Source: a virus | Lineage: Duplodnaviria; Caudoviricetes | IMG/VR virus record: IMGVR_UViG_3300033434_000014 | Span: 1-36,851 of that record | Length of the DNA stretch: 36,851 nucleotides | Strand: one strand, 5' to 3' | Part shown: piece by piece, positions 1,213-32,693 of the stretch | Layout: every line of letters starts with the position of its first letter | How positions within the stretch are numbered: the stretch's first letter is position 1 | Notes under the pieces: model-generated | Database searches by the model: none | What the model was told of the DNA's origin: nothing | The model's input: only the letters and a program-made list of their open reading frames with translations | Translations under genes and position numbers: made by a program

Positions 1213-1578
1213 TCAAACCCTCTTCCCAGATTTAAAAGCTGTAGGCGGTAATATTTTAGCGTAAGCAGCTAATTGCTTTGCTCGGCAATCCAGTTTGTCG
1301 CAAGTGATACAATACTCAATTTGCGGTAATAAGAAGGGGAATAGGCAGTTTTTAGCAAGGTTCCACCAGTCTCCATAGGCCACGGTTTGGGCTAGGAAGG
1401 TTTTACCATATTGGCGCCCTGAAAAGATTTTATAATCCATCTGTATTTGATAATTAACTAGCCGTTGCATAACGCGTGCCGCTTTAGCTGCTTTCTTAAA
1501 CCTGGCCTTAACTGCGGCTAATAGTGGCGGGTTACTGATTCGTTTGGCTCTTTTCTTGTTACACTGTCGAATATTCAT
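1213..1578 (-). CDS. Hypothetical basic protein
   Basis: GAGGTG RBS and ATGA overlap give a start at 1578. Confidence 0.65.
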   Translation of the reverse strand: MNIRQCNKKRAKRISNPPLLAAVKARFKKAAKAARVMQRLVNYQIQMDYKIFSGRQYGKTFLAQTVAYGDWWNLAKNCLFPFLLPQIEYCITCDKLDCRAKQLAAYAKILPPTAFKSGKRV

Positions 1579-2195
1579 TCTGCACCTCTCCTTATTAGAT
1601 ACACTTTTCGTGAAACTTTGCCACACTGTAAAGCTTGTTTATGGTCGTCCATAAATACATCAATACGCTTACCTTTAATGGCTCCCCCGCGATCCTCAAC
1701 ATACCTAGTACCCACACCATCTATGTATACGATGGATCTAGGCGGCAAAACACACCAGTCTGCGGCTATTGTACGCCCCTCTACAGCCGTAGATCCTATA
1801 GCGGTAATACCATAGTCTTCGTCTCCTATATCTTTTCCGGTACTCTCTGGCCCTGCCGTGTAGAAGGTTATGGTAAAATTACCAAGAGGTACGCCACGGT
1901 GAACGCCGCCCCTGCTAGTACTCCCGTAAGAAATATCCTCAAGTGCGTATTCGGAAGGTGCTTCTTCGGGGGCGGTTGTGCTGCCTGTGGCCCCAGTGAC
2001 TGGTAATATTCCTCTAGCTGCGTCTTCAGTTGTCGGTTCTCCGCTTCCATGTCGGCAATCGTGGACCACAATTCCCTCTCCTTGTTCCGTGGTGGCTTTT
2101 TCCTTTTCGTGTAAAACTTCCCCATACAGCGCACCCCTCATTATTAATATCGATAGGATCACCAAACATAAATTACTTTTTACGTTTTTTAGCAG
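1575..2195 (-). CDS. 3D-domain (MltA-like, peptidoglycan-related) exported or membrane-anchored protein; probable CTG start (TTG 2165 is the alternative)
   Basis: C-terminal TFYT..TAIG..TIAAD..VEDRGGAIKGKRIDVF with the three Asp of 3D domains; SRGG pre-domain motif; basic plus hydrophobic N-terminus. Confidence 0.85.
   Translation of the reverse strand: MLKNVKSNLCLVILSILIMRGALYGEVLHEKEKATTEQGEGIVVHDCRHGSGEPTTEDAARGILPVTGATGSTTAPEEAPSEYALEDISYGSTSRGGVHRGVPLGNFTITFYTAGPESTGKDIGDEDYGITAIGSTAVEGRTIAADWCVLPPRSIVYIDGVGTRYVEDRGGAIKGKRIDVFMDDHKQALQCGKVSRKVYLIRRGAE
1599..1615. repeat. 17-bp dispersed palindrome, 1 mismatch
   Basis: ATACAC TTTTC GTGAAA. Confidence 0.65.
1868..2125 (-). CDS. Nested out-of-frame gene: coiled-coil protein with a C-terminal transmembrane helix
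   Basis: Own RBS GAGGGGTG 6 nt before ATG 2125; basic N-terminus, coiled coil, Pro-rich linker, TM segment IFLTGVLAGAAFTVAYLLVILP. Confidence 0.6.
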   Translation of the reverse strand: MGKFYTKRKKPPRNKERELWSTIADMEAENRQLKTQLEEYYQSLGPQAAQPPPKKHLPNTHLRIFLTGVLAGAAFTVAYLLVILP

Positions 2196-2394
2196 TACCC
2201 ATCACTTCCTTTCTCCACTTAGTAACCCACGGACTGGGTATGTCGGTTGTCTTGCATGCCATGCCACAGCTTCCTTTCTTCTCACAATGGAAGCAGCAGG
2301 CTTTAGGGTTTTTATTACTGCAGAGAACATCGTTTTCGCATTCTTGTGCTTCGTAACGAGGGCATAGCTTAAAGTTAAGTTTAGATTTAGTCAT
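2173..2394 (-). CDS. Small Cys-rich hypothetical protein
   Basis: Many Cys (CCFHC, CGMAC); AGGTGG RBS. Confidence 0.65.
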   Translation of the reverse strand: MTKSKLNFKLCPRYEAQECENDVLCSNKNPKACCFHCEKKGSCGMACKTTDIPSPWVTKWRKEVMGTAKKRKK

Positions 2395-7458: not shown

Positions 7459-7475
7459 TTTCACGTTTAGTGGAA
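7459..7475. repeat. 17-bp dispersed palindrome, exact
   Basis: TTTCAC GTTTA GTGGAA, beside the polA RBS. Confidence 0.8.
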
Positions 7476-8472
7476 TTGGTTATCTGATTCTGTGCTTGGC
7501 TTCATACCTGAGAGTATATGGGCTATTACGCTAACTGTCCAGCCATTACCGAGCAACTTATACCTTTGATTATCAGAGCAACTAGCTGTATACATTTCTG
7601 GTACTGTTTGAAGTCTTTCACATTCCAGTGGAGTTAGTTTGCGGATGAAGTTATTGGTTAATATCCCATGTTTATCCTGAGCGGTTAACGTATAAAATTT
7701 ACTGTGTGGTGGTTTAAATCTTCTTCCGTTTTGTTTTTTGCTTAACCTATCTGGTGTTAAACACGGTAATGCATACAGCCCCGTTTTAGCTCCAAGACCA
7801 CAGGCATCCCCACACAAGGTTACAGACTTATCGTGTATGCTGTATATCCGATTACCCTGGTTGTCTGAGCCTATATAAGCTATTTTTCTTCGCTTAACTT
7901 CGTTTTCTAGAATAACAACTAGTCTGTTAGGGTTGATAAGGTACTTAGCGTCTACAGTATCTTCGAGTACGTCCTCAACCGTTTCTGGACATTTGGTCCA
8001 CTCTTTTTCAAAAGGGATATTTGTCCAATACCATCTTACACGGTCTTGAGCAGAAAAGTCAGCAGAGTTTATTTTTATGGGTTCAACTTTCATGTGCTCT
8101 GTAATAATGTTTAGGTACTCTTTTTTCATGTTAACATTTTCAAGCAAAAAATACTTTGGCTGTAGTTCTTCTTTTACTCTTATGTAGTCAAAAAAACAGC
8201 CTACTCCTTGGATCGGAAAAGTTTAGTTGTTTACCCGCGAAACTAAACCCTTGACAGGGGCTACCACCCATCAATAAGTCAATTTCTGGTAACGTACTGA
8301 GGTCTATACTAGTCACGCCCCCTAGTTGCTTGGTTTCAGGAAAGTTATTTATTGTAACTTGAATTGCGTACTTATCAATTTCGCTTGCAAAATAGTTGCT
8401 CACGTGTATCCCAGCTCTTCGCAGTGCTAGCTGACCACCGCTCATACCATCGAATAGTGATAAGACATTCAT
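7467..8472 (-). pseudogene. C5-cytosine DNA methyltransferase split by a +1 frameshift in a T7 run (8190-8196)
   Basis: 5' ORF has SLFDG and GGSPCQGFS; 3' ORF has ENV, Q.R.R, RKLTPLECERLQ and LGNGW; removing one T restores LFFDYIRVKEELQPKYFLLENV. Confidence 0.9.
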
Positions 8473-8843: not shown

Positions 8844-9257
8844 TTAAACGTAACAACCGTAGTTCACCACAATATACTTCATGGCGTCTTCTAACGTCCT
8901 TAACCTTGCCGTGACGTTAACATCAACCCACGGATAAACAAGTGATGGACTGTCACCAAAAGCAATAACAGGTTTTCCTAACTCTCCTGCAAGTACTATT
9001 TCACATATAGTACCTATGCTCGGATCTTTCCTGTTAATCATTTCGGCTAAAATAATGTCGCTGTGCATAAGCATGAATTTGTTACTGTCAACAATTTCTT
9101 TAGCTGTAGAAGAACCGTCAAGGAGAGTGCTCACCGGATTCCAAACTCTGAAGTCATTTACTCGAAGCATATAAGTAGCATCATCACGCCATTCCGTCAT
9201 TTCCTCCCTAGTTAAACCCGTCATAGCCCCTGCTAAGTACACCGCAATCTTACTCAT
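8844..9257 (-). CDS. Nucleoside 2-deoxyribosyltransferase / nucleotide N-glycosidase family protein
   Basis: VYLAG, VWNP, SDIILA, SIGTICE, GKPVI motifs. Confidence 0.8.
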   Translation of the reverse strand: MSKIAVYLAGAMTGLTREEMTEWRDDATYMLRVNDFRVWNPVSTLLDGSSTAKEIVDSNKFMLMHSDIILAEMINRKDPSIGTICEIVLAGELGKPVIAFGDSPSLVYPWVDVNVTARLRTLEDAMKYIVVNYGCYV

Positions 9258-9868
9258 AATGTTCCTCCTAGTAATTTTCTAGCTTTCTTCCTTGTACGTT
9301 GTTGCGCGTTATCGAACGCCTTATACCGGATTCCCATCTTTTCAGCTATTGCAGGGCCAGAATACCCTGCGTACTGAAGCTGCAGCACACGTAGTTCCAT
9401 AGGTGTAAGGCAAGCGGACAAGGCGCTGTATATCTCAGAGGCTGTAAGTTCGTCAACGACTTCAGCCTCTATGTCCGCCTTATCTACTATCATTTCTTCC
9501 AGAGTCCGTGGTTCGCTTGAATTCCGCTCCATCATTAAGGAAAGGGAGAGAGCTGTAAAATCCCCTTTGCGTTTTTCGCGGTTCTGATTCTTCAGCTCTG
9601 TATTAATCTTACGTTGAGCTACCTTCAACAGCCATGATTCCGCTGGTACGCCTATACTCGGGTCGAATTTCTTAATACCTTCCAGAATGCCGATCATTGA
9701 TGTTTGTGCTAAATCTTTAATTTCGTATCCTATACGAAACCTCATAGGCAACCCACTCAAGTACTTTCCTACGATCTTAAACATAATCTTTAGCATGCGT
9801 TCCATAGCGTCGTTATCTCCAGCTTTAGCCTGTAAACACAGGTCATCGTAAAGATGTGGCATAATCAA
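9254..9868 (-). CDS. Sigma-70 family factor, SigH-like
   Basis: AKAGDNDA, DLAQ..GILEGIKKFD, region 4 IAEKMGIRYKAFDNAQQRTRKK resembling SigH KSIDNALQR. Confidence 0.8.
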   Translation of the reverse strand: MIMPHLYDDLCLQAKAGDNDAMERMLKIMFKIVGKYLSGLPMRFRIGYEIKDLAQTSMIGILEGIKKFDPSIGVPAESWLLKVAQRKINTELKNQNREKRKGDFTALSLSLMMERNSSEPRTLEEMIVDKADIEAEVVDELTASEIYSALSACLTPMELRVLQLQYAGYSGPAIAEKMGIRYKAFDNAQQRTRKKARKLLGGTL

Positions 9869-19158: not shown

Positions 19159-21933
19159 TCAATCCCACTTCATTCCATCAAGGAACGCTTCAATATCATC
19201 CTTGTTGGTTCTCGGTTTCTTAGGAACTGTAAGCCCCAACCTCTGGTATACTTTCCTCCGGCTGTAATACTGCGATTTAAACACCCCGACATTCGCGTCC
19301 ACTATATCGATCCACAGCGCTTTCTTCTCTGGGTTACGGGGGTCTGGCCGCTGTATTCGCCCGATGGTTTGCTCTACCCCTATACCGTTCTTCGCGCTTC
19401 CTGTATCGCCTCTTTGTGGTATTGCTAGAAGTCCTACACAAAGGTTAGGTAAGTCTAAGCCCTCTTTAGCAATACTGGAAGCTATTAGAATATCAAGTTT
19501 TCCAGCGCGGGACTCTTCCATTACTTGTTTCCGATATAGTGGAGTGCATTGCCAGCTTCGCATTTCACTTTCCGTGTAATTCTCAACCTTGATTTCCCAC
19601 CGTTTAGCTTTAGCATTAAACCTGTAGGCTACCGCTTTACCTTGCTGCATAAGTTCTTGGGCTGCAAACTCGCTACGAGCTACGCGCCACGAACACTGGC
19701 TTATAGGGCCGTGAACTACTGCTGTACGAATTCCTTTAAAACCCCGCTCGGCGGCTCTCTCAAGAATTAAGCCGTGTAACTTGTGGGCATACTTAATGCT
19801 CTCACTTACTACGATAGTAAAGCCCTGCTTTAAATTATTCAACGTGGTGTCTGCAATTAGTATAGCACGGTCATCATCTACGATCAAATGCTGTATAAGG
19901 TCGTGATAGTCCAATTCTTCGCCACCAGCGTCCACAGACGTCCCATTCCTCACTGATGCTGGCTCATAGTCGAAATCGCTATAAACGAATTTTATCTCCG
20001 GTTTAATTAATCGTCCCGACTCGTATAGGCCGTCTCTCGTGATTCGGTATACCTCAGGCCCTATTGCGCGATACATGTACTCTTGCAGCATATCCTTACG
20101 CTCTGGTGTGGCTGTAAGTCCCATTATTCTGCGTGCTTTAAACTTATTTAGCACTTCGATAAACGTGGTACTTGGCGTGTGGTGGCAATTATGCGTTAAG
20201 ATCCCGTTAGCAATAAAAGTATGGTCTGTGGTGGTAAAATCGTAAACTGCGGTGCCATGTAGCGGCGATACCTTCTTTATAGCCGTTAATCTATAAGGTA
20301 ATCCTTTATAGGTAATTTCACGATCAGTGTAAAATGTCCTCTGTTTAGAGAATCTGGCTAGTGTTTTACGGGAGTTACCTAAATTACCAATATTCTCTAT
20401 AAAATTAATTAAATCCTGACCACGTATTGTTATTCGGTGAACATCATTGTGGCCCTTAAGCTTATCAGCAGGTTTCTTAGACAGTGTACGGGCGTGTACC
20501 CCAAACTTCATAAGTAATTGTCTCATCTGTTCTAGGAAAGCGTATGCAGTCATGTCAAGAATCAAGCGTTGGCAACCGTTTTTTTCTGTAACTACAGCCC
20601 CCTCTGCGGCGAATACCGTGGTGATAAACCCCCGCAGGGCGTCTGACGGCGCCGTAAAAACCGTATCAGTAATTACTAGCTTATAGGCTTTCTTGCCCGC
20701 AGGGATAGCAAATGTCACCATTAACGTAGTTATTATCTCTTTGTTTGCAGACCATAAAGTTAAATCGCCCCGACAATTAATTGATTCTTTATAACTACTA
20801 CCGTATCCAAAAGCCGTCAACCCCGCCTTAAACACTCTTCTATAGTAGTCTAAATCTGTTCTTACAGCAACTTTCACCCTGGAGAGATTTTTCTCAATAT
20901 GCCCATCGGTGCAAATTAACGCCACGAAAGCCAGTTGTTCGGGCGTCCATTCACTCTTTTCTACGTGTGGTGTACTTAGAGGCAGCAGCAAGTAGTCCCC
21001 TTCGGTCAGGTCTTTTGTCTGTATTGCTTGAACACAGTCACCATCGGGAGGCACATACCCCCCTTTAGAATACGTCTTGAACTCTTTTTTATACACAATA
21101 TGCTTATGTGTATCGGTACAGTTAAGTTTTCCGTTTTGTGTAACTACTTCGTAAACAAGTCCAGTACGTTGGAATTTGTTGCTCACTACCCCACCCACGA
21201 CTAAATCACCATTCATTACGTCGGCTATTGGTTTAGCTGTGCCGTCTGCTAGCGTAATTAGCGTGTCACCGGCAAGACACTCGTCAACTACAACGTTCCC
21301 TATCAAGGGATCAAGTGCCTCGATAAGTTCTGGACGTTGACTTAAAGTCTGGGCCATCGCCACAATTAGCTTACCATCCCCGTAATCCACAACACCGTCA
21401 GCAATTCTACCAACACGCCCGATATCACCTGAAACTGCCTGAGCTTTAGCTATAGTTTGCTCCAAAAGGTCTTTCGTGTGAGTAAGCCATATTGTAGGTT
21501 TCCCTGTATCGTGTACATACTTAAGACCCATTACTGTCTTACCACTACCTGCGGGGGCTATCAAAACCCCGTTCTGCTGCATCATTGCAGCTACTGCGGG
21601 CAACTGGTCGTCCTTAAGGCTGTAAGCGGTATTCCATTCCCCGAAGTCTACAGCTTTTGTGTCGTTGTATTGTTCAAGAATTATGTCAAGTGGGATGTTC
21701 TGCTGCTGCATAATGTTTTTAAGGTCTTTTAAGAACCCTCTAGGACATACGATATCCGAACCTTCCAGCCTGTATAGTTTTAACTTCTTTTCAATGCCCC
21801 AAACCTTTTGGCGTTTCTTTTGCTTTTCAATGTATACCGGGTTGTCGATTTCCAGGGCTTTGGTTATTGCAGACCGGAGGGGAACCGTAGCCCCTCTGAT
21901 CCATATTTGATTTGATATAGTGATCTGTAGCAA
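19159..21933 (-). CDS. SF2 DExH helicase precursor containing an intein
   Basis: PAGSGKT, DE|CHH split by the intein, GLTATPER, EGLDLP, QTIGRIQR. Confidence 0.92.
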   Translation of the reverse strand: MLQITISNQIWIRGATVPLRSAITKALEIDNPVYIEKQKKRQKVWGIEKKLKLYRLEGSDIVCPRGFLKDLKNIMQQQNIPLDIILEQYNDTKAVDFGEWNTAYSLKDDQLPAVAAMMQQNGVLIAPAGSGKTVMGLKYVHDTGKPTIWLTHTKDLLEQTIAKAQAVSGDIGRVGRIADGVVDYGDGKLIVAMAQTLSQRPELIEALDPLIGNVVVDECLAGDTLITLADGTAKPIADVMNGDLVVGGVVSNKFQRTGLVYEVVTQNGKLNCTDTHKHIVYKKEFKTYSKGGYVPPDGDCVQAIQTKDLTEGDYLLLPLSTPHVEKSEWTPEQLAFVALICTDGHIEKNLSRVKVAVRTDLDYYRRVFKAGLTAFGYGSSYKESINCRGDLTLWSANKEIITTLMVTFAIPAGKKAYKLVITDTVFTAPSDALRGFITTVFAAEGAVVTEKNGCQRLILDMTAYAFLEQMRQLLMKFGVHARTLSKKPADKLKGHNDVHRITIRGQDLINFIENIGNLGNSRKTLARFSKQRTFYTDREITYKGLPYRLTAIKKVSPLHGTAVYDFTTTDHTFIANGILTHNCHHTPSTTFIEVLNKFKARRIMGLTATPERKDMLQEYMYRAIGPEVYRITRDGLYESGRLIKPEIKFVYSDFDYEPASVRNGTSVDAGGEELDYHDLIQHLIVDDDRAILIADTTLNNLKQGFTIVVSESIKYAHKLHGLILERAAERGFKGIRTAVVHGPISQCSWRVARSEFAAQELMQQGKAVAYRFNAKAKRWEIKVENYTESEMRSWQCTPLYRKQVMEESRAGKLDILIASSIAKEGLDLPNLCVGLLAIPQRGDTGSAKNGIGVEQTIGRIQRPDPRNPEKKALWIDIVDANVGVFKSQYYSRRKVYQRLGLTVPKKPRTNKDDIEAFLDGMKWD
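19563..19579. repeat. 17-bp dispersed palindrome, exact
   Basis: TTTCAC TTTCC GTGTAA. Confidence 0.8.
20188..21279 (-). mobile_element. Intein (364 aa) with LAGLIDADG homing endonuclease, inserted in Walker B
   Basis: Begins CLAGDT, block B CTDTHKH, LAGLIDADG-like FVALICTDG and FITTVFAAEG, ends ANGILTHN before Cys+1. Confidence 0.93.
20316..20332. repeat. 17-bp dispersed palindrome, exact (inside the intein)
   Basis: TTTCAC GATCA GTGTAA. Confidence 0.75.
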
Positions 21934-22661: not shown

Positions 22662-23153
22662 TTATTTGCAGTAATCAACCACAGGCTGTAAATAATATGT
22701 CCTCTTTTCAGCTTCCATTAAAGGTATTTCCACGAATTGTGTAAATAGAGAACCGAAGTCACCTAGCTTTATATGATTCTTACCTTCTCGCTTCATAAAC
22801 CGTAGCGCGTCAACCAGTCTAAAAACAAGCGTCCTATCTGTATCTGCGTTTAAGAAGGATACAAACACCAGCCCCTTGTTGTGCTGTAGAACGCATTCGA
22901 AATCGAGTAATCCACGAATCTGCGGAGGACGTAGGAAACTTAGTTCGAACTTGTCTCCCGCTGTTCGCTTGTGTTCAGCTAAGATATTACAGCTCTTTAA
23001 GAGCACTACTTCATCTGCCGGCCTGGTCCCGGCTCCGGCATCAGTAATCCGGAGCCTCCAACTGTTTGGGACTAGCGCCCACGATCTACGCATTTCATCT
23101 TGGAAATCCTCGCCTCTGTCCCGGCGTTCCTTTTGCTTATTCGTGTTCGCCAA
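22662..23153 (-). CDS. RecU-like Holliday junction resolvase (PD-(D/E)xK)
   Basis: [22 protein letters not shown] motifs; TTG 23153 after GGGGA. Confidence 0.7.
22728..22744. repeat. 17-bp dispersed palindrome, exact
   Basis: TTCCAC GAATT GTGTAA. Confidence 0.8.
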
Positions 23154-23385
23154 TGCGGTCCCCAATGTATTCAACAATAGCTATAAACGGCATATCACCA
23201 AATTTTTCCGCTGCTTCATCAGGTATTTCTATATTGAAACCAGCTTCGAAATCCATAACTGTTTCAACAATGTCAAGGGAATCGGCACCAAGGTCATCTA
23301 TTAATTGTGCGTCATCAGTAACATCAGCCGGATCAATACCTAATTTTTCTACAACAATATCTTTAACTCTTTCAAATGTTGTCAA
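23137..23385 (-). CDS. acpP: Acyl carrier protein
   Basis: Acidic 82 aa with [12 protein letters not shown] phosphopantetheine site and [10 protein letters not shown]. Confidence 0.92.
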
Positions 23386-30009: not shown

Positions 30010-31564
30010 TGCAAATTTCCTCCCCTATCATCTGCCCGCAAGTAGGGCATACGTCAATTTCTTTCCACATTTCGTGTAGCTCTTTTTTAGCAGTAGCTAA
30101 CGAATCACTATGTACCGTCAACCGTGAACTAGCTACAATTGCTTCTGCATTACGGGCTTTATACTCTTCTTGCAGCTTCTTAAAAACCATAAGTGTACTC
30201 TGTTTTACGCTCATGGTTTTTAAGGCCTCTGCTGCCTGACTTAGCCCCGCTGTAGTACTTACGGTATCCGAACACTGCTTCATTCGTGTACAGGCTACGT
30301 TGTACTGCGCTCTCATAATTCTAAACTGCTGTAAGCGTTCCAACATAACTTCTGACTTTTTAAGAGTTTCGATTACACTATGGTCAACCGCTGTAGACTC
30401 AATTAGAGCCTTATAGCGCGCCACACCCTGAGCTGAGGAAGTATGTGTCCCCACTAAGTTTTGAAGTAACTGTGACCGTGTTATGGCGGCCTCTGTATGA
30501 GCTAACCTGTCTATCGCTTTTGGTAGGTTGATTGTACTGTTTATTACAGCTTTGTTGATATCAATTTCCTGGGAGCCGAATCTATGAAGACCGGCAAGCT
30601 TTTTGATTGTTACCAGTTTCTCATTGTTGACAACTACCTGACTAAGCGTACTTTTAATAGAAGGAAGAAGCGAGTACCGCCCTATTTCGTTTACCAAATT
30701 CGTACGCTGTAAACAGTTATCGGTAAACCTACACAATAAGTTTTTCCAGTTACTGAGTTTTGTAGAGCAATCGTCTACAGCTTTTAATGACTCTTGCAGC
30801 TTCTTAACATTGCGGAACCGTAGCACGAATTCCGTGTACCCGCTGACCTTAGCCGCTAAACTACTGTAAGTATCCCGTAATTCTGCTACCACTTTATACT
30901 TTACTGACTTAGCGTCCACACGTTCAAGCAAAACGCCACATACATGTAACTGCTCAACCTGCTGGGGAAGATCGTAGAACTGCGCTAATGCTGCTTCGGT
31001 TTTCTCAATATCTTTTATAGACTGTAACCGCTGCTGATTTGCCGCATAGTTGTCTTTAGCTACAGCTTTGATAGCCATATCAACTACTTCAGTACCCGAC
31101 AGCTTGCCAAGAACTTTAGCCCCTGCGGATGACGGTTCACTTAATAGAAAAGGAGCGGCTAATTGATAAGCAAAGTTTAGCTCTGTCTCAAAGTCACCGA
31201 ACTGCGTTTTTACTATTCCGAGAGCTTTGATAATTTCCTCAGGCGTTTCGGCTTTGTCAAAAACCATGGGATCTTCACCGGGGTTTTCCAACGTATAGGA
31301 TGTCTTAGCGCCTTTACGCTGCTTCGTAACTACTGTCCCGGTAGTTAAGTGGATACTAACTTTAGTCTGTCCTATGGCTTTATTGACAAATGAGTCACCT
31401 GCCGGCTCTCCAAATACTACCCACCGGATAGCGCGAATAATAGCTGTCTTGCCCGAGTCACTTGGGCCTGTAATAACTGTTAGTCCAGGGCTTACACTAA
31501 TGGTGGAATCTACGTGAGACTGAAACCCTGTTAATTGAATTTCGTTAATCGTTGAATTATTCAC
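30002..31564 (-). CDS. N-terminal half of a split SbcC/Rad50-like ABC ATPase ending in a zinc hook
   Basis: FQSH, Walker A GPSDSGKT, Q-loop AYQ, long coiled coil, terminal CPTCGQ. Confidence 0.88.
   Translation of the reverse strand: MNNSTINEIQLTGFQSHVDSTISVSPGLTVITGPSDSGKTAIIRAIRWVVFGEPAGDSFVNKAIGQTKVSIHLTTGTVVTKQRKGAKTSYTLENPGEDPMVFDKAETPEEIIKALGIVKTQFGDFETELNFAYQLAAPFLLSEPSSAGAKVLGKLSGTEVVDMAIKAVAKDNYAANQQRLQSIKDIEKTEAALAQFYDLPQQVEQLHVCGVLLERVDAKSVKYKVVAELRDTYSSLAAKVSGYTEFVLRFRNVKKLQESLKAVDDCSTKLSNWKNLLCRFTDNCLQRTNLVNEIGRYSLLPSIKSTLSQVVVNNEKLVTIKKLAGLHRFGSQEIDINKAVINSTINLPKAIDRLAHTEAAITRSQLLQNLVGTHTSSAQGVARYKALIESTAVDHSVIETLKKSEVMLERLQQFRIMRAQYNVACTRMKQCSDTVSTTAGLSQAAEALKTMSVKQSTLMVFKKLQEEYKARNAEAIVASSRLTVHSDSLATAKKELHEMWKEIDVCPTCGQMIGEEICNG
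30063..30079. repeat. 17-bp dispersed palindrome, 1 mismatch
   Basis: TTCCAC ATTTC GTGTAG. Confidence 0.7.
31492..31508. repeat. 17-bp dispersed palindrome, exact
   Basis: TTACAC TAATG GTGGAA. Confidence 0.8.
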
Positions 31565-32693
31565 TTCGCGGCCCGCTCTTAACAGAAATTGAGTAACTCA
31601 TTAAAGGTACGTCAAATGTTTTTACCTTGCTCAAAGCTTGGTCAAACACCTTTTTTAACCAATCATAATCAGCACCACAGCCCTCTAGTGTGATACCTAT
31701 AGATGCTGTCGGTTGTGGGTATTTAACGCTACATACAGGCACACCCGTAAGTTCACGAACAGACTCTTCTGGCACAAACTTTGACGCAACCTTATTCCGT
31801 AAGTCTTCAAACTGTTTTTCTGGTGAATACCAAGGCTGTAAAGGAGCAACAGCAATTTCAATACTATCACCCTGAAACAACTCGCCTGATCTTCTCAGTT
31901 TTTTCTTAAAGTTACTGACAGTTCCTTGAAGACACCATGAAGCTTTACATATATCAACTACGGGCATACCTGTCGTTTTTAAAAGTTCTTTAGCTTTTTC
32001 GTGATCATCTACAACCTTAATCACTGTACCATCACTCTCCTTTAAGTACTCTCGCACTTTAGCCTCTATTTTTACCAGCACCCTTGAAACCTGTGGCTGA
32101 CTGATACCAACGTTAGAAGCAACTTCCCTTTGACTTAAGTCCTCTATGTAACGATTACGAAATACAGCTAGTTCTTTTTTGCTAAACTTTGCGCACATAT
32201 CACCAATGTTAAAAGTAGAGTCAAAGTCAACGTCAGATCCTAGTACATCCCTGCGCAAGATAATACCACCGTCGACACCGTCATTAACATGTTCATCCAT
32301 TGAAACAAGCAGAAGATTATTACCATAAGCCAGGGCTTCTAATACATTGGGTACGCTTATTTCTAATATGGCAGCTATGTCTTCCGGAGTCTTGTCTTTA
32401 ATACCATCATCCTTATTAATGAGATACCAGTTGTCTTTTACGGACCTTGTAAAGTGCACAGGATTATCGTCGCGTATGGCTCTCTGCAATTCACCATGAA
32501 TCATAGGCACCGCATAAGTAGAGAACTTAACACCGTACGAAACATCAAACTTTTTAGCGGCCTTTATTAGCCCAATATTACCCCAGCCAACTAAATCGTC
32601 CATGTCAAACCTATTCTGGAAACCACCTAAATATTTATGTATTGTGTAAGGAACTAACCTAAGATTAGCCTCTATCAGCGCGTTTACGTCCAT
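31557..32693 (-). CDS. SigF/SigG/SigB-like sigma factor with a ~150-aa C-terminal extension
   Basis: NLRLV, DDLVGWGNIGLIKA, KFSTYAVPMIHGEL, SQREVA..GISQPQVSR. Confidence 0.9.
   Translation of the reverse strand: MDVNALIEANLRLVPYTIHKYLGGFQNRFDMDDLVGWGNIGLIKAAKKFDVSYGVKFSTYAVPMIHGELQRAIRDDNPVHFTRSVKDNWYLINKDDGIKDKTPEDIAAILEISVPNVLEALAYGNNLLLVSMDEHVNDGVDGGIILRRDVLGSDVDFDSTFNIGDMCAKFSKKELAVFRNRYIEDLSQREVASNVGISQPQVSRVLVKIEAKVREYLKESDGTVIKVVDDHEKAKELLKTTGMPVVDICKASWCLQGTVSNFKKKLRRSGELFQGDSIEIAVAPLQPWYSPEKQFEDLRNKVASKFVPEESVRELTGVPVCSVKYPQPTASIGITLEGCGADYDWLKKVFDQALSKVKTFDVPLMSYSISVKSGPRSE

Follow-up and report, generated by a model that had tools for sequence, protein, structure and literature searches.

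Fully nested, out-of-frame genes in tailed phages are known mostly as spanins of phages that infect Gram-negative bacteria. In the Rz/Rz1 pairs, which occur in embedded and separated layouts, the inner gene occupies the +1 frame and the product of the outer gene has a membrane segment at its N terminus (PMC6139136). Phages of Bacillota encode SPP1 gp24.1 and PBSX XhlA, membrane proteins of about 70–130 amino acids with one C-terminal helix. They are harmless alone and required together with a second holin, and gp24.1 has a second in-frame start with its own ribosome site, giving gp24.1* (PMC6316719). XhlA is predicted to work with XhlB, and yorM is repressor-bound (PMC10516654, PMC5589764). 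In lambda, the longer and more basic S107 is the antiholin (PMC6116005).

Wall enzymes of two kinds are also relevant. The YuiC/Sps family (PF06725), with catalytic residues named in PMC4499186, combines a signal with a catalytic domain, and 3D proteins with this fold serve survival in stationary phase, with YorM as the member carried by SPbeta (PMC1084345, PMC4499186). Kayviruses encode Tgl, a secreted lytic transglycosylase distinct from their main endolysin. It is an early-transcribed auxiliary lysin that is triggered by nisin or depolarisation and resembles IsaA/SceD (PMC7150955). Finally, some small membrane-bound phage proteins act during replication. SPO1 gp56, a 79-residue N-in protein with one helix, blocks division and needs a 20-residue outside tail (bioRxiv 10.1101/2020.02.06.938217); phi29 p1 is found in association with FtsZ, and p16.7 of the same phage organises replication at the membrane (PMC11476376).

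Here we describe a pair of genes in Bacillota phages in which a conserved, selection-supported gene for a small membrane protein is nested within the gene for a 3D-domain wall enzyme. Inner proteins of this kind form an unnamed family, many of them with two predicted starts. The pair is real and conserved, and appears to be previously undescribed. A literature search of listings and the openings of abstracts, with few subscription journals covered, turned up no description of a gene lying inside a phage 3D gene, and neither '3D domain' nor 'overlap' occurs in the main text of the genome paper of Bacillus phage vB_BboS-125 (PMC6375668) or in that of PMC11674121.

The nested locus

All features of the locus lie on the minus strand of the window, the whole 36,851-nucleotide stretch of viral DNA analysed. 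The outer gene (1575..2195) is open from 2201 to a stop at 1577–1575 and encodes 206 amino acids from its likely start: an N-terminal hydrophobic helix, a disordered linker and a 3D (YuiC/MltA-type) lytic transglycosylase domain. The protein matches Pfam 3D (E 8e-12; 45.6 bits against a cut-off of 23.8) and Bacillus subtilis YuiC (E 1e-15), with all three aspartates (codons starting at 1760, 1694 and 1661) and the conserved, orienting threonine of FTIT aligned within the domain (1590..1892). The predicted model has a helix at residues 5–24 (2124..2183), either signal-peptide-like or an anchor, low confidence from about 30 to 100, and a confident barrel from 102 that matches 4wlk (Foldseek, E 6e-9) and MltA (3e-5). 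The linker (1893..2123), encoded by the same DNA as the inner protein, is predicted to be disordered (pLDDT about 45–57 over residues 31–100). By sequence and predicted fold, the outer protein belongs to the 3D/Sps lytic transglycosylase family, and it is predicted to be exported and to cut the wall; the view in the earlier note that this frame is real thus stands.

We place the outer start most likely at CTG 2195 because the frame has no good canonical start and a near-perfect ribosome-binding site (2201..2214) lies 5 nt before the CTG, with a duplex energy of −16.7 kcal/mol as opposed to −1.0 kcal/mol at the nearest canonical starts, among them TTG 2165. Starting there yields a basic-then-hydrophobic leader. 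Apparent ATC or CTG outer starts behind good ribosome sites are seen at L007:2261, L022:2156 and L072:981 as well as at window 2195; such starts are not enriched over non-nested 3D genes overall. The counts do not support systematically weak outer initiation in nested loci: an ATG with a site is present in 10 of 24 nested and 77 of 130 non-nested genes (p 0.12), and any canonical start in 14/24 and 88/130 (p 0.48).

The inner gene (1868..2125), noticed earlier as an 85-residue open reading frame (ORF) in another frame of the 3D gene, runs in the +1 frame from ATG 2125 to TAA 1870–1868. The strong ribosome-binding site claimed for it is present (2132..2139; GAGGGGTG-6 nt-ATG), with an anti-SD duplex of −10.2 kcal/mol, and in the outer frame reads as the helix-ending Arg-Gly of the signal. 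The long form begins with a basic head (+6 over 18 residues), followed by a short segment resembling a coiled coil, then a Pro-rich stretch and finally a hydrophobic C-terminal helix, predicted to span the membrane (1874..1930; 19-residue Kyte–Doolittle mean 2.24). This architecture is as first described, except that the Pro-rich stretch, clear only in the window, L007 and L022, is not a trait of the family. A second in-frame start that the earlier note missed, TTG 2071, is preceded by a ribosome site (2083–2074, −8.7 kcal/mol); the predicted short form (1868..2071) has 67 residues and lacks the basic head.

The earlier note placed the inner gene wholly within the linker. In fact, its helix and stop extend into DNA that, in the outer frame, encodes SRGG and the first beta-strand of the 3D fold. 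The two genes are therefore not merely adjacent, as they would be if the 3D domain began at a downstream start: no start with a ribosome site occurs between the inner gene and the domain, the inner gene ends within the first strand of the fold, and the outer frame is open from the hydrophobic N-terminal helix through the inner gene.

Nested genes in related phages

Scans of viral, genome and metagenome sequences gave 198 distinct 3D loci, from which 31 with fewer than 60 open codons before the domain were dropped. Among the remaining 167, the +1 frame holds at least 45 open codons ending near the domain start in 41, and 25 of these 41 encode a C-terminal helix; as the loci were selected for resemblance to the query or to nested loci, 25/167 is no population estimate. 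Every one of the 25 helix-bearing ORFs has a ribosome site; of the 16 long +1 ORFs that encode no helix, 2 do. The +2 frame served as a control across the same 167 loci: 7 are open, 1 has a site and none has a helix. The 25 nested loci are the window and 24 others, and L420 is a further nested copy; L001, 100% identical to the window over 1101 bases, adds no evolutionary evidence.

The nested relatives share 44–58% identity with the window in the 3D domain, and their named hosts are Bacillus, Paenibacillus, Brevibacillus and Lysinibacillus. Relatives keep the inner frame, its ribosome site and its membrane helix, which is what the earlier note had proposed to check. All 25 loci retain the three Asp motifs, and an N-terminal helix of the outer protein was scored in 24; in 23 of these 24 the distance from the end of that helix to the first inner start is −2 to +6 codons. 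In the outer protein, the inner ribosome site corresponds to Gly-Gly or Arg-Gly and the inner start codon to [Y/H/N]-Gly/Ala. Phage vB_BboS-125 has the nested gene, and its annotation lists the 3D gene only. Annotation thus misses the inner gene, and this cultured phage, together with Paenibacillus prophages such as that of Paenibacillus sinopodophylli (L214), makes the system testable.

A quick 3D tree places 22 of the 25 nested loci in one branch (SH-aLRT 94), along with L021, a 3D gene of this branch that has no inner gene; the window, L012 and L058 have no firm placement. A single clade of nested loci was not rejected (p-AU 0.617, 50 chosen rows), which is not proof of a single origin. With 25 of 167 3D loci, the inner frame is narrower in range than the outer, range being a criterion for telling a new frame from an old one (PMC8227390).

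Two further sets of loci have +1 ORFs of other kinds. In L086 (2421–2498) and L088 (2424–2501), whose 3D genes belong to another branch, a 25-residue ORF that encodes little more than a helix follows a ribosome site of −17; this may be the same overprint in a reduced form, or one that arose independently. Five related phages (L099–L102 and L111, about 2445–2582) have a 45-residue ORF with a strong ribosome site that enters the 3D domain and encodes no membrane helix. As to neighbours, an unnamed gene of about 200 residues (for example, L006:2811–3434) follows the pair in 16 of the 25 nested loci and another unnamed gene precedes it in 10; the copies tested had no Pfam match, and neither gene is seen beside the pair of the window.

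Chance and selection

Several features of the window would suit a chance origin of its inner frame. Its inner protein is on a long branch and has no detectable homolog when searched alone, the outer gene needs a rare CTG start, and the stop position is partly forced by an [IV]T motif, the triplet being present in 50 of 142 non-nested loci; we accordingly discounted the fixed inner stop as evidence. Against this, resampling synonymous codons with the codon usage of the window rarely preserved either frame: with the inner protein fixed, the outer frame remained free of stops in 10 of 2000 trials, and with the outer protein fixed, the inner frame did so in 62 of 2000. In the window, both frames are thus open more than chance predicts. 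The +1 and +2 frames of 21 further window genes, 7117 codons in all, contain 6 nested ORFs of at least 45 codons, none with both a ribosome site and a membrane helix. The frame, the start position at the helix end, the stop and the architecture also match those of the 24 other loci, and in nearly every one of the 25 both frames are open beyond the synonymous-codon expectation. We consider it very improbable that the inner ORF of the window is a chance frame, or a mere neighbour of a 3D gene that starts downstream of it.

Of 300 homolog pairs, 20 passed a 36% identity filter. Their median uncorrected pN/pS is 0.63 for the inner frame, 1.10 for the outer linker and 0.35 for the 3D domain, and the inner value is below that of the outer linker in 18 of the 20 pairs (exceptions, L007/L022 and L013/L016). 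These results support the family more than the window, because the pairs share lineages and the sole pair that includes the window is poorly aligned. Taken with the arrangement in relatives and the open frames, they bear out the earlier reading of both frames as genes: both frames are under selection and the two genes are genuine.

Inner-protein family and dual start

A profile built from 8 inner proteins and searched against 1.84 billion representatives gave 42 matches, 41 of them of matching length (41 clusters). All 41 have the C-terminal helix and 23 have the long-form motif; GKGYxxR and YxxAWEAEK are conserved in the inner frame. The family has no name in Pfam, PHROGs or NCBIfam. None of 49 and none of 15 inner members matched the XhlA family (PF10779), no member matched the holin families, and Atlas matches of 0.80 and 0.85 are leads only. 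The family model has two helices (8–34 and 43–115), and fold searches with it found no match. Sampled genomes matched the profile in 4 of 401, 2 of 401 and 0 of 61 cases. Among 119 loci from a metagenome motif scan only L294 and L317 are full-length family members; 7 other short matches, which have the motif only, were set aside.

We assign the inner protein of the window to this family by position and architecture, with a weak profile match. The family HMM does not match it, hhalign gave 39% and E 3e-4 over 26 columns that include the conserved Tyr, a single-sequence search returned 4 candidates with none at E 0.01, and a viral scan found only the identical phage and two short, weak matches.

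A second inner start, 15–45 codons in and with a site of −8.5 or better, is present in 15 of the 25 loci, compared with about 6% expected from other frames. The inner gene is thus predicted to have two conserved in-frame starts, one for a long basic form and one for a short form. The extension carries a charge of +3 to +12 over 18–38 residues, and 0–9 residues follow the helix at the C terminus. This dual start, the likely CTG start of the enzyme gene and the four un-nested copies described below are new here.

For topology, the positive-inside rule was used with hydropathy. It would place the enzyme outside the membrane and the inner coiled coil inside. With the soluble parts on opposite sides in this prediction, contact within the pair would be possible only via the two helices.

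Un-nested copies and origin of the overlap

Four inner genes are un-nested (L317, L415, L421 and L422), two with a separate 3D gene just upstream and two without. L317, on a contig of only 1063 bases, and L415 retain the inner gene in its usual syntenic position and lack a 3D gene in the vicinity. L415 keeps both inner starts and a remnant hydrophobic leader, with 8 stops in the outer frame, and the 3D genes of its genome are far off; the open outer frame of L317 was dismissed as a sign of selection (279/2000, not significant). Genome G476 has one nested copy (L420) and two free ones (L421 and L422), one with 5 and the other with 8 stops in the outer frame. A separate, compact, signal-bearing 3D gene lies directly upstream of L422 and one gene upstream of L421; both upstream 3D genes are of an unrelated branch. 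These copies establish the inner ORF as a true gene by itself and show that outer read-through is preserved only where the enzyme is.

The un-nested copies do not form one clade (p-AU 0.0003) and are positioned among nested relatives, although bootstrap values are rough. Repeated un-nesting from a nested ancestor is therefore the simpler reading. Overprinting would have given rise to the inner gene, with the sequence for the Gly-Gly...[Y/H/N]-Gly end of a signal peptide also serving as its ribosome site and start codon, and the inner gene would then have outlasted several losses or un-nestings of the enzyme gene. With nested, separated and solitary states side by side, both the birth of a gene by overprinting and its escape from overlap can be studied in one family.

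As evidence for a partnership, the un-nested copies cut both ways. The two real genes may be functionally independent, nested only because the end of a signal peptide easily spells a ribosome site and a start and a disordered linker tolerates a second frame. The survival of the inner gene in L415 beside a decayed outer frame, its occurrence in L317 likewise without a 3D gene, the enzyme without an inner gene in L021 and the predicted placement of the soluble parts across the membrane all fit independence. However, nesting is retained across very diverged phages, and just upstream of 2 of the 4 un-nested copies there is a 3D gene from an unrelated branch. That adjacency may itself be positional, because 3D genes are common in such regions and both copies come from one genome. 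On balance, we think independence unlikely.

Genomic setting and function

The window is the integrase–repressor–replication arm of a temperate phage. The pair lies just downstream of DNA polymerase A and the primase-helicase, inside the replication operon and on the strand opposite to the integrase; the view in the earlier note that it is not part of the lysis cassette holds. A promoter scan near the pair found 6 signals when 7.6 were expected, which is chance level. An identical sister contig (G001:C1:1-34499; L413 and L414) adds, as judged by eye, terminase, portal, capsid and short-tail-type genes and a run of small genes in the opposite orientation; no lysis cassette was spotted by eye in this 44-kb contig with head and tail genes, which is about 52% complete. 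In vB_BboS-125, a separate amidase–holin cassette is around 27 kb away from the pair, and 3 of 5 near-complete relatives have an amidase elsewhere (two amidase families).

The pair might change the envelope of a lysogen or infected cell, in superinfection exclusion or in control of dormancy with the 3D enzyme acting in a Sps-like manner. The role of related 3D proteins in stationary-phase survival, the presence of YorM in SPbeta and the temperate nature of the phage of the window, with its two sigma factors, would suit this. We nevertheless judge it quite improbable, as the pair is in the replication operon opposite to the integrase with nearby promoter signals at chance, and the literature search linked no paper on the 3D domain to superinfection.

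A role in host takeover is a more serious possibility, to which we give a limited weight. The inner protein would block division or anchor DNA replication at the membrane, the basic long form would bind nucleic acid, and the enzyme would loosen the wall for elongation. The position just downstream of DNA polymerase A and the primase-helicase, the existence of a separate lysis cassette, the long basic helix (H8–34) followed by a continuous helix to the membrane in the inner model, and the precedents of gp56, p1 and p16.7 are consistent with such a role. No sequence or fold similarity to these three proteins was found, however, and none of them is nested in a wall enzyme gene; the C-terminal tails here are far shorter than the outside tail that gp56 needs, and host takeover alone does not explain the conserved second start.

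Comparison with Rz/Rz1, first drawn in the earlier note, holds for the gene layout and fails beyond it. Here the hosts are Bacilli, the pair lies outside the lysis cassette, the outer product is an enzyme with a disordered linker, and the inner protein has no lipoprotein signal and carries a C-terminal helix and a coiled coil that is predicted to be cytoplasmic. Neither the inner protein of the window nor those aligned to it have an N-terminal hydrophobic signal or a lipobox Cys. We rejected a two-component spanin on the basis of the absent lipobox, an outer protein that is a 3D enzyme and not a periplasmic coiled-coil i-spanin, the replication-region location and the Bacilli hosts.

Our preferred reading, held tentatively and at somewhat less than even probability, is an accessory lysis (wall-weakening) pair of a gp24.1/XhlA-like membrane component and a Tgl-like secreted enzyme. 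We favour it because the inner layout matches SPP1 gp24.1/XhlA, because the longer basic form of lambda is an antiholin and because Tgl provides a precedent. Both proteins would be made from one replication-region transcript. The enzyme would be exported by its own N-terminal signal, with no holin needed for its release, and be held in the wall on its long disordered linker, restrained by the energised membrane as Tgl of kayviruses may be. The inner protein, N-in with a cytoplasmic coiled coil and, similar to gp24.1/XhlA, harmless alone, would help the main holin, its short form being active and its long basic form a brake or timer. The separate signal-bearing 3D genes upstream of the un-nested L422 and L421 also speak for an accessory lysis pair.

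Several observations argue against this reading. The inner family has no XhlA or holin family match and no fold match, and the family profile misses the inner protein of the window. L415 and L317 have the inner gene without a nearby 3D gene, and L021 has the 3D gene without an inner gene. In relatives the main endolysin is elsewhere, and location among replication genes equally fits host-takeover roles. The differences from the proposed models are also clear. Unlike gp24.1 and XhlA, the inner gene is nested in an enzyme gene, far from holin and endolysin, and its extension is strongly basic and, at 18–38 residues, much longer than in known dual-start holins, compared with 9 residues in gp24.1 (PMC6316719). 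The enzyme resembles YuiC/Sps, including YorM, in sequence, fold, three aspartates and domain plan, but here the linker carries a second gene and the location is a phage replication region. It would share with Tgl a secreted, early-type role apart from the main endolysin; Tgl itself is not a 3D protein, and its abstract reports no membrane gene nested within it (PMC7150955).

A bolder version of the accessory lysis reading is a Gram-positive counterpart of the embedded spanin cassette, in which a self-exporting lytic transglycosylase is paired with a de novo, dual-start membrane trigger (the short form) that carries its own brake (the long basic form). We regard this as rather unlikely but worth stating; if true, it would be a second, independently evolved switch for lysis or wall remodelling, with overprinting birth and un-nesting traceable in present-day genomes. 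The family may also help to explain why an exported 3D enzyme is encoded in the replication region of many Bacillota phages.

Several further genes of the window are of note. On the minus strand, an acyl-carrier-protein-like gene (23137–23385; PP-binding, E 3e-11) lies amid the replication genes, and a helicase gene (19159–21933) is split by an intein with a LAGLIDADG domain. Two sigma-70-type factors (31557–32693, and 9254–9868 on the minus strand) are encoded in this one phage arm, and an apparent DNA cytosine methylase on the minus strand, recognized by eye, spans two ORFs (8188–8472 and 7467–8147) over 7467–8472.
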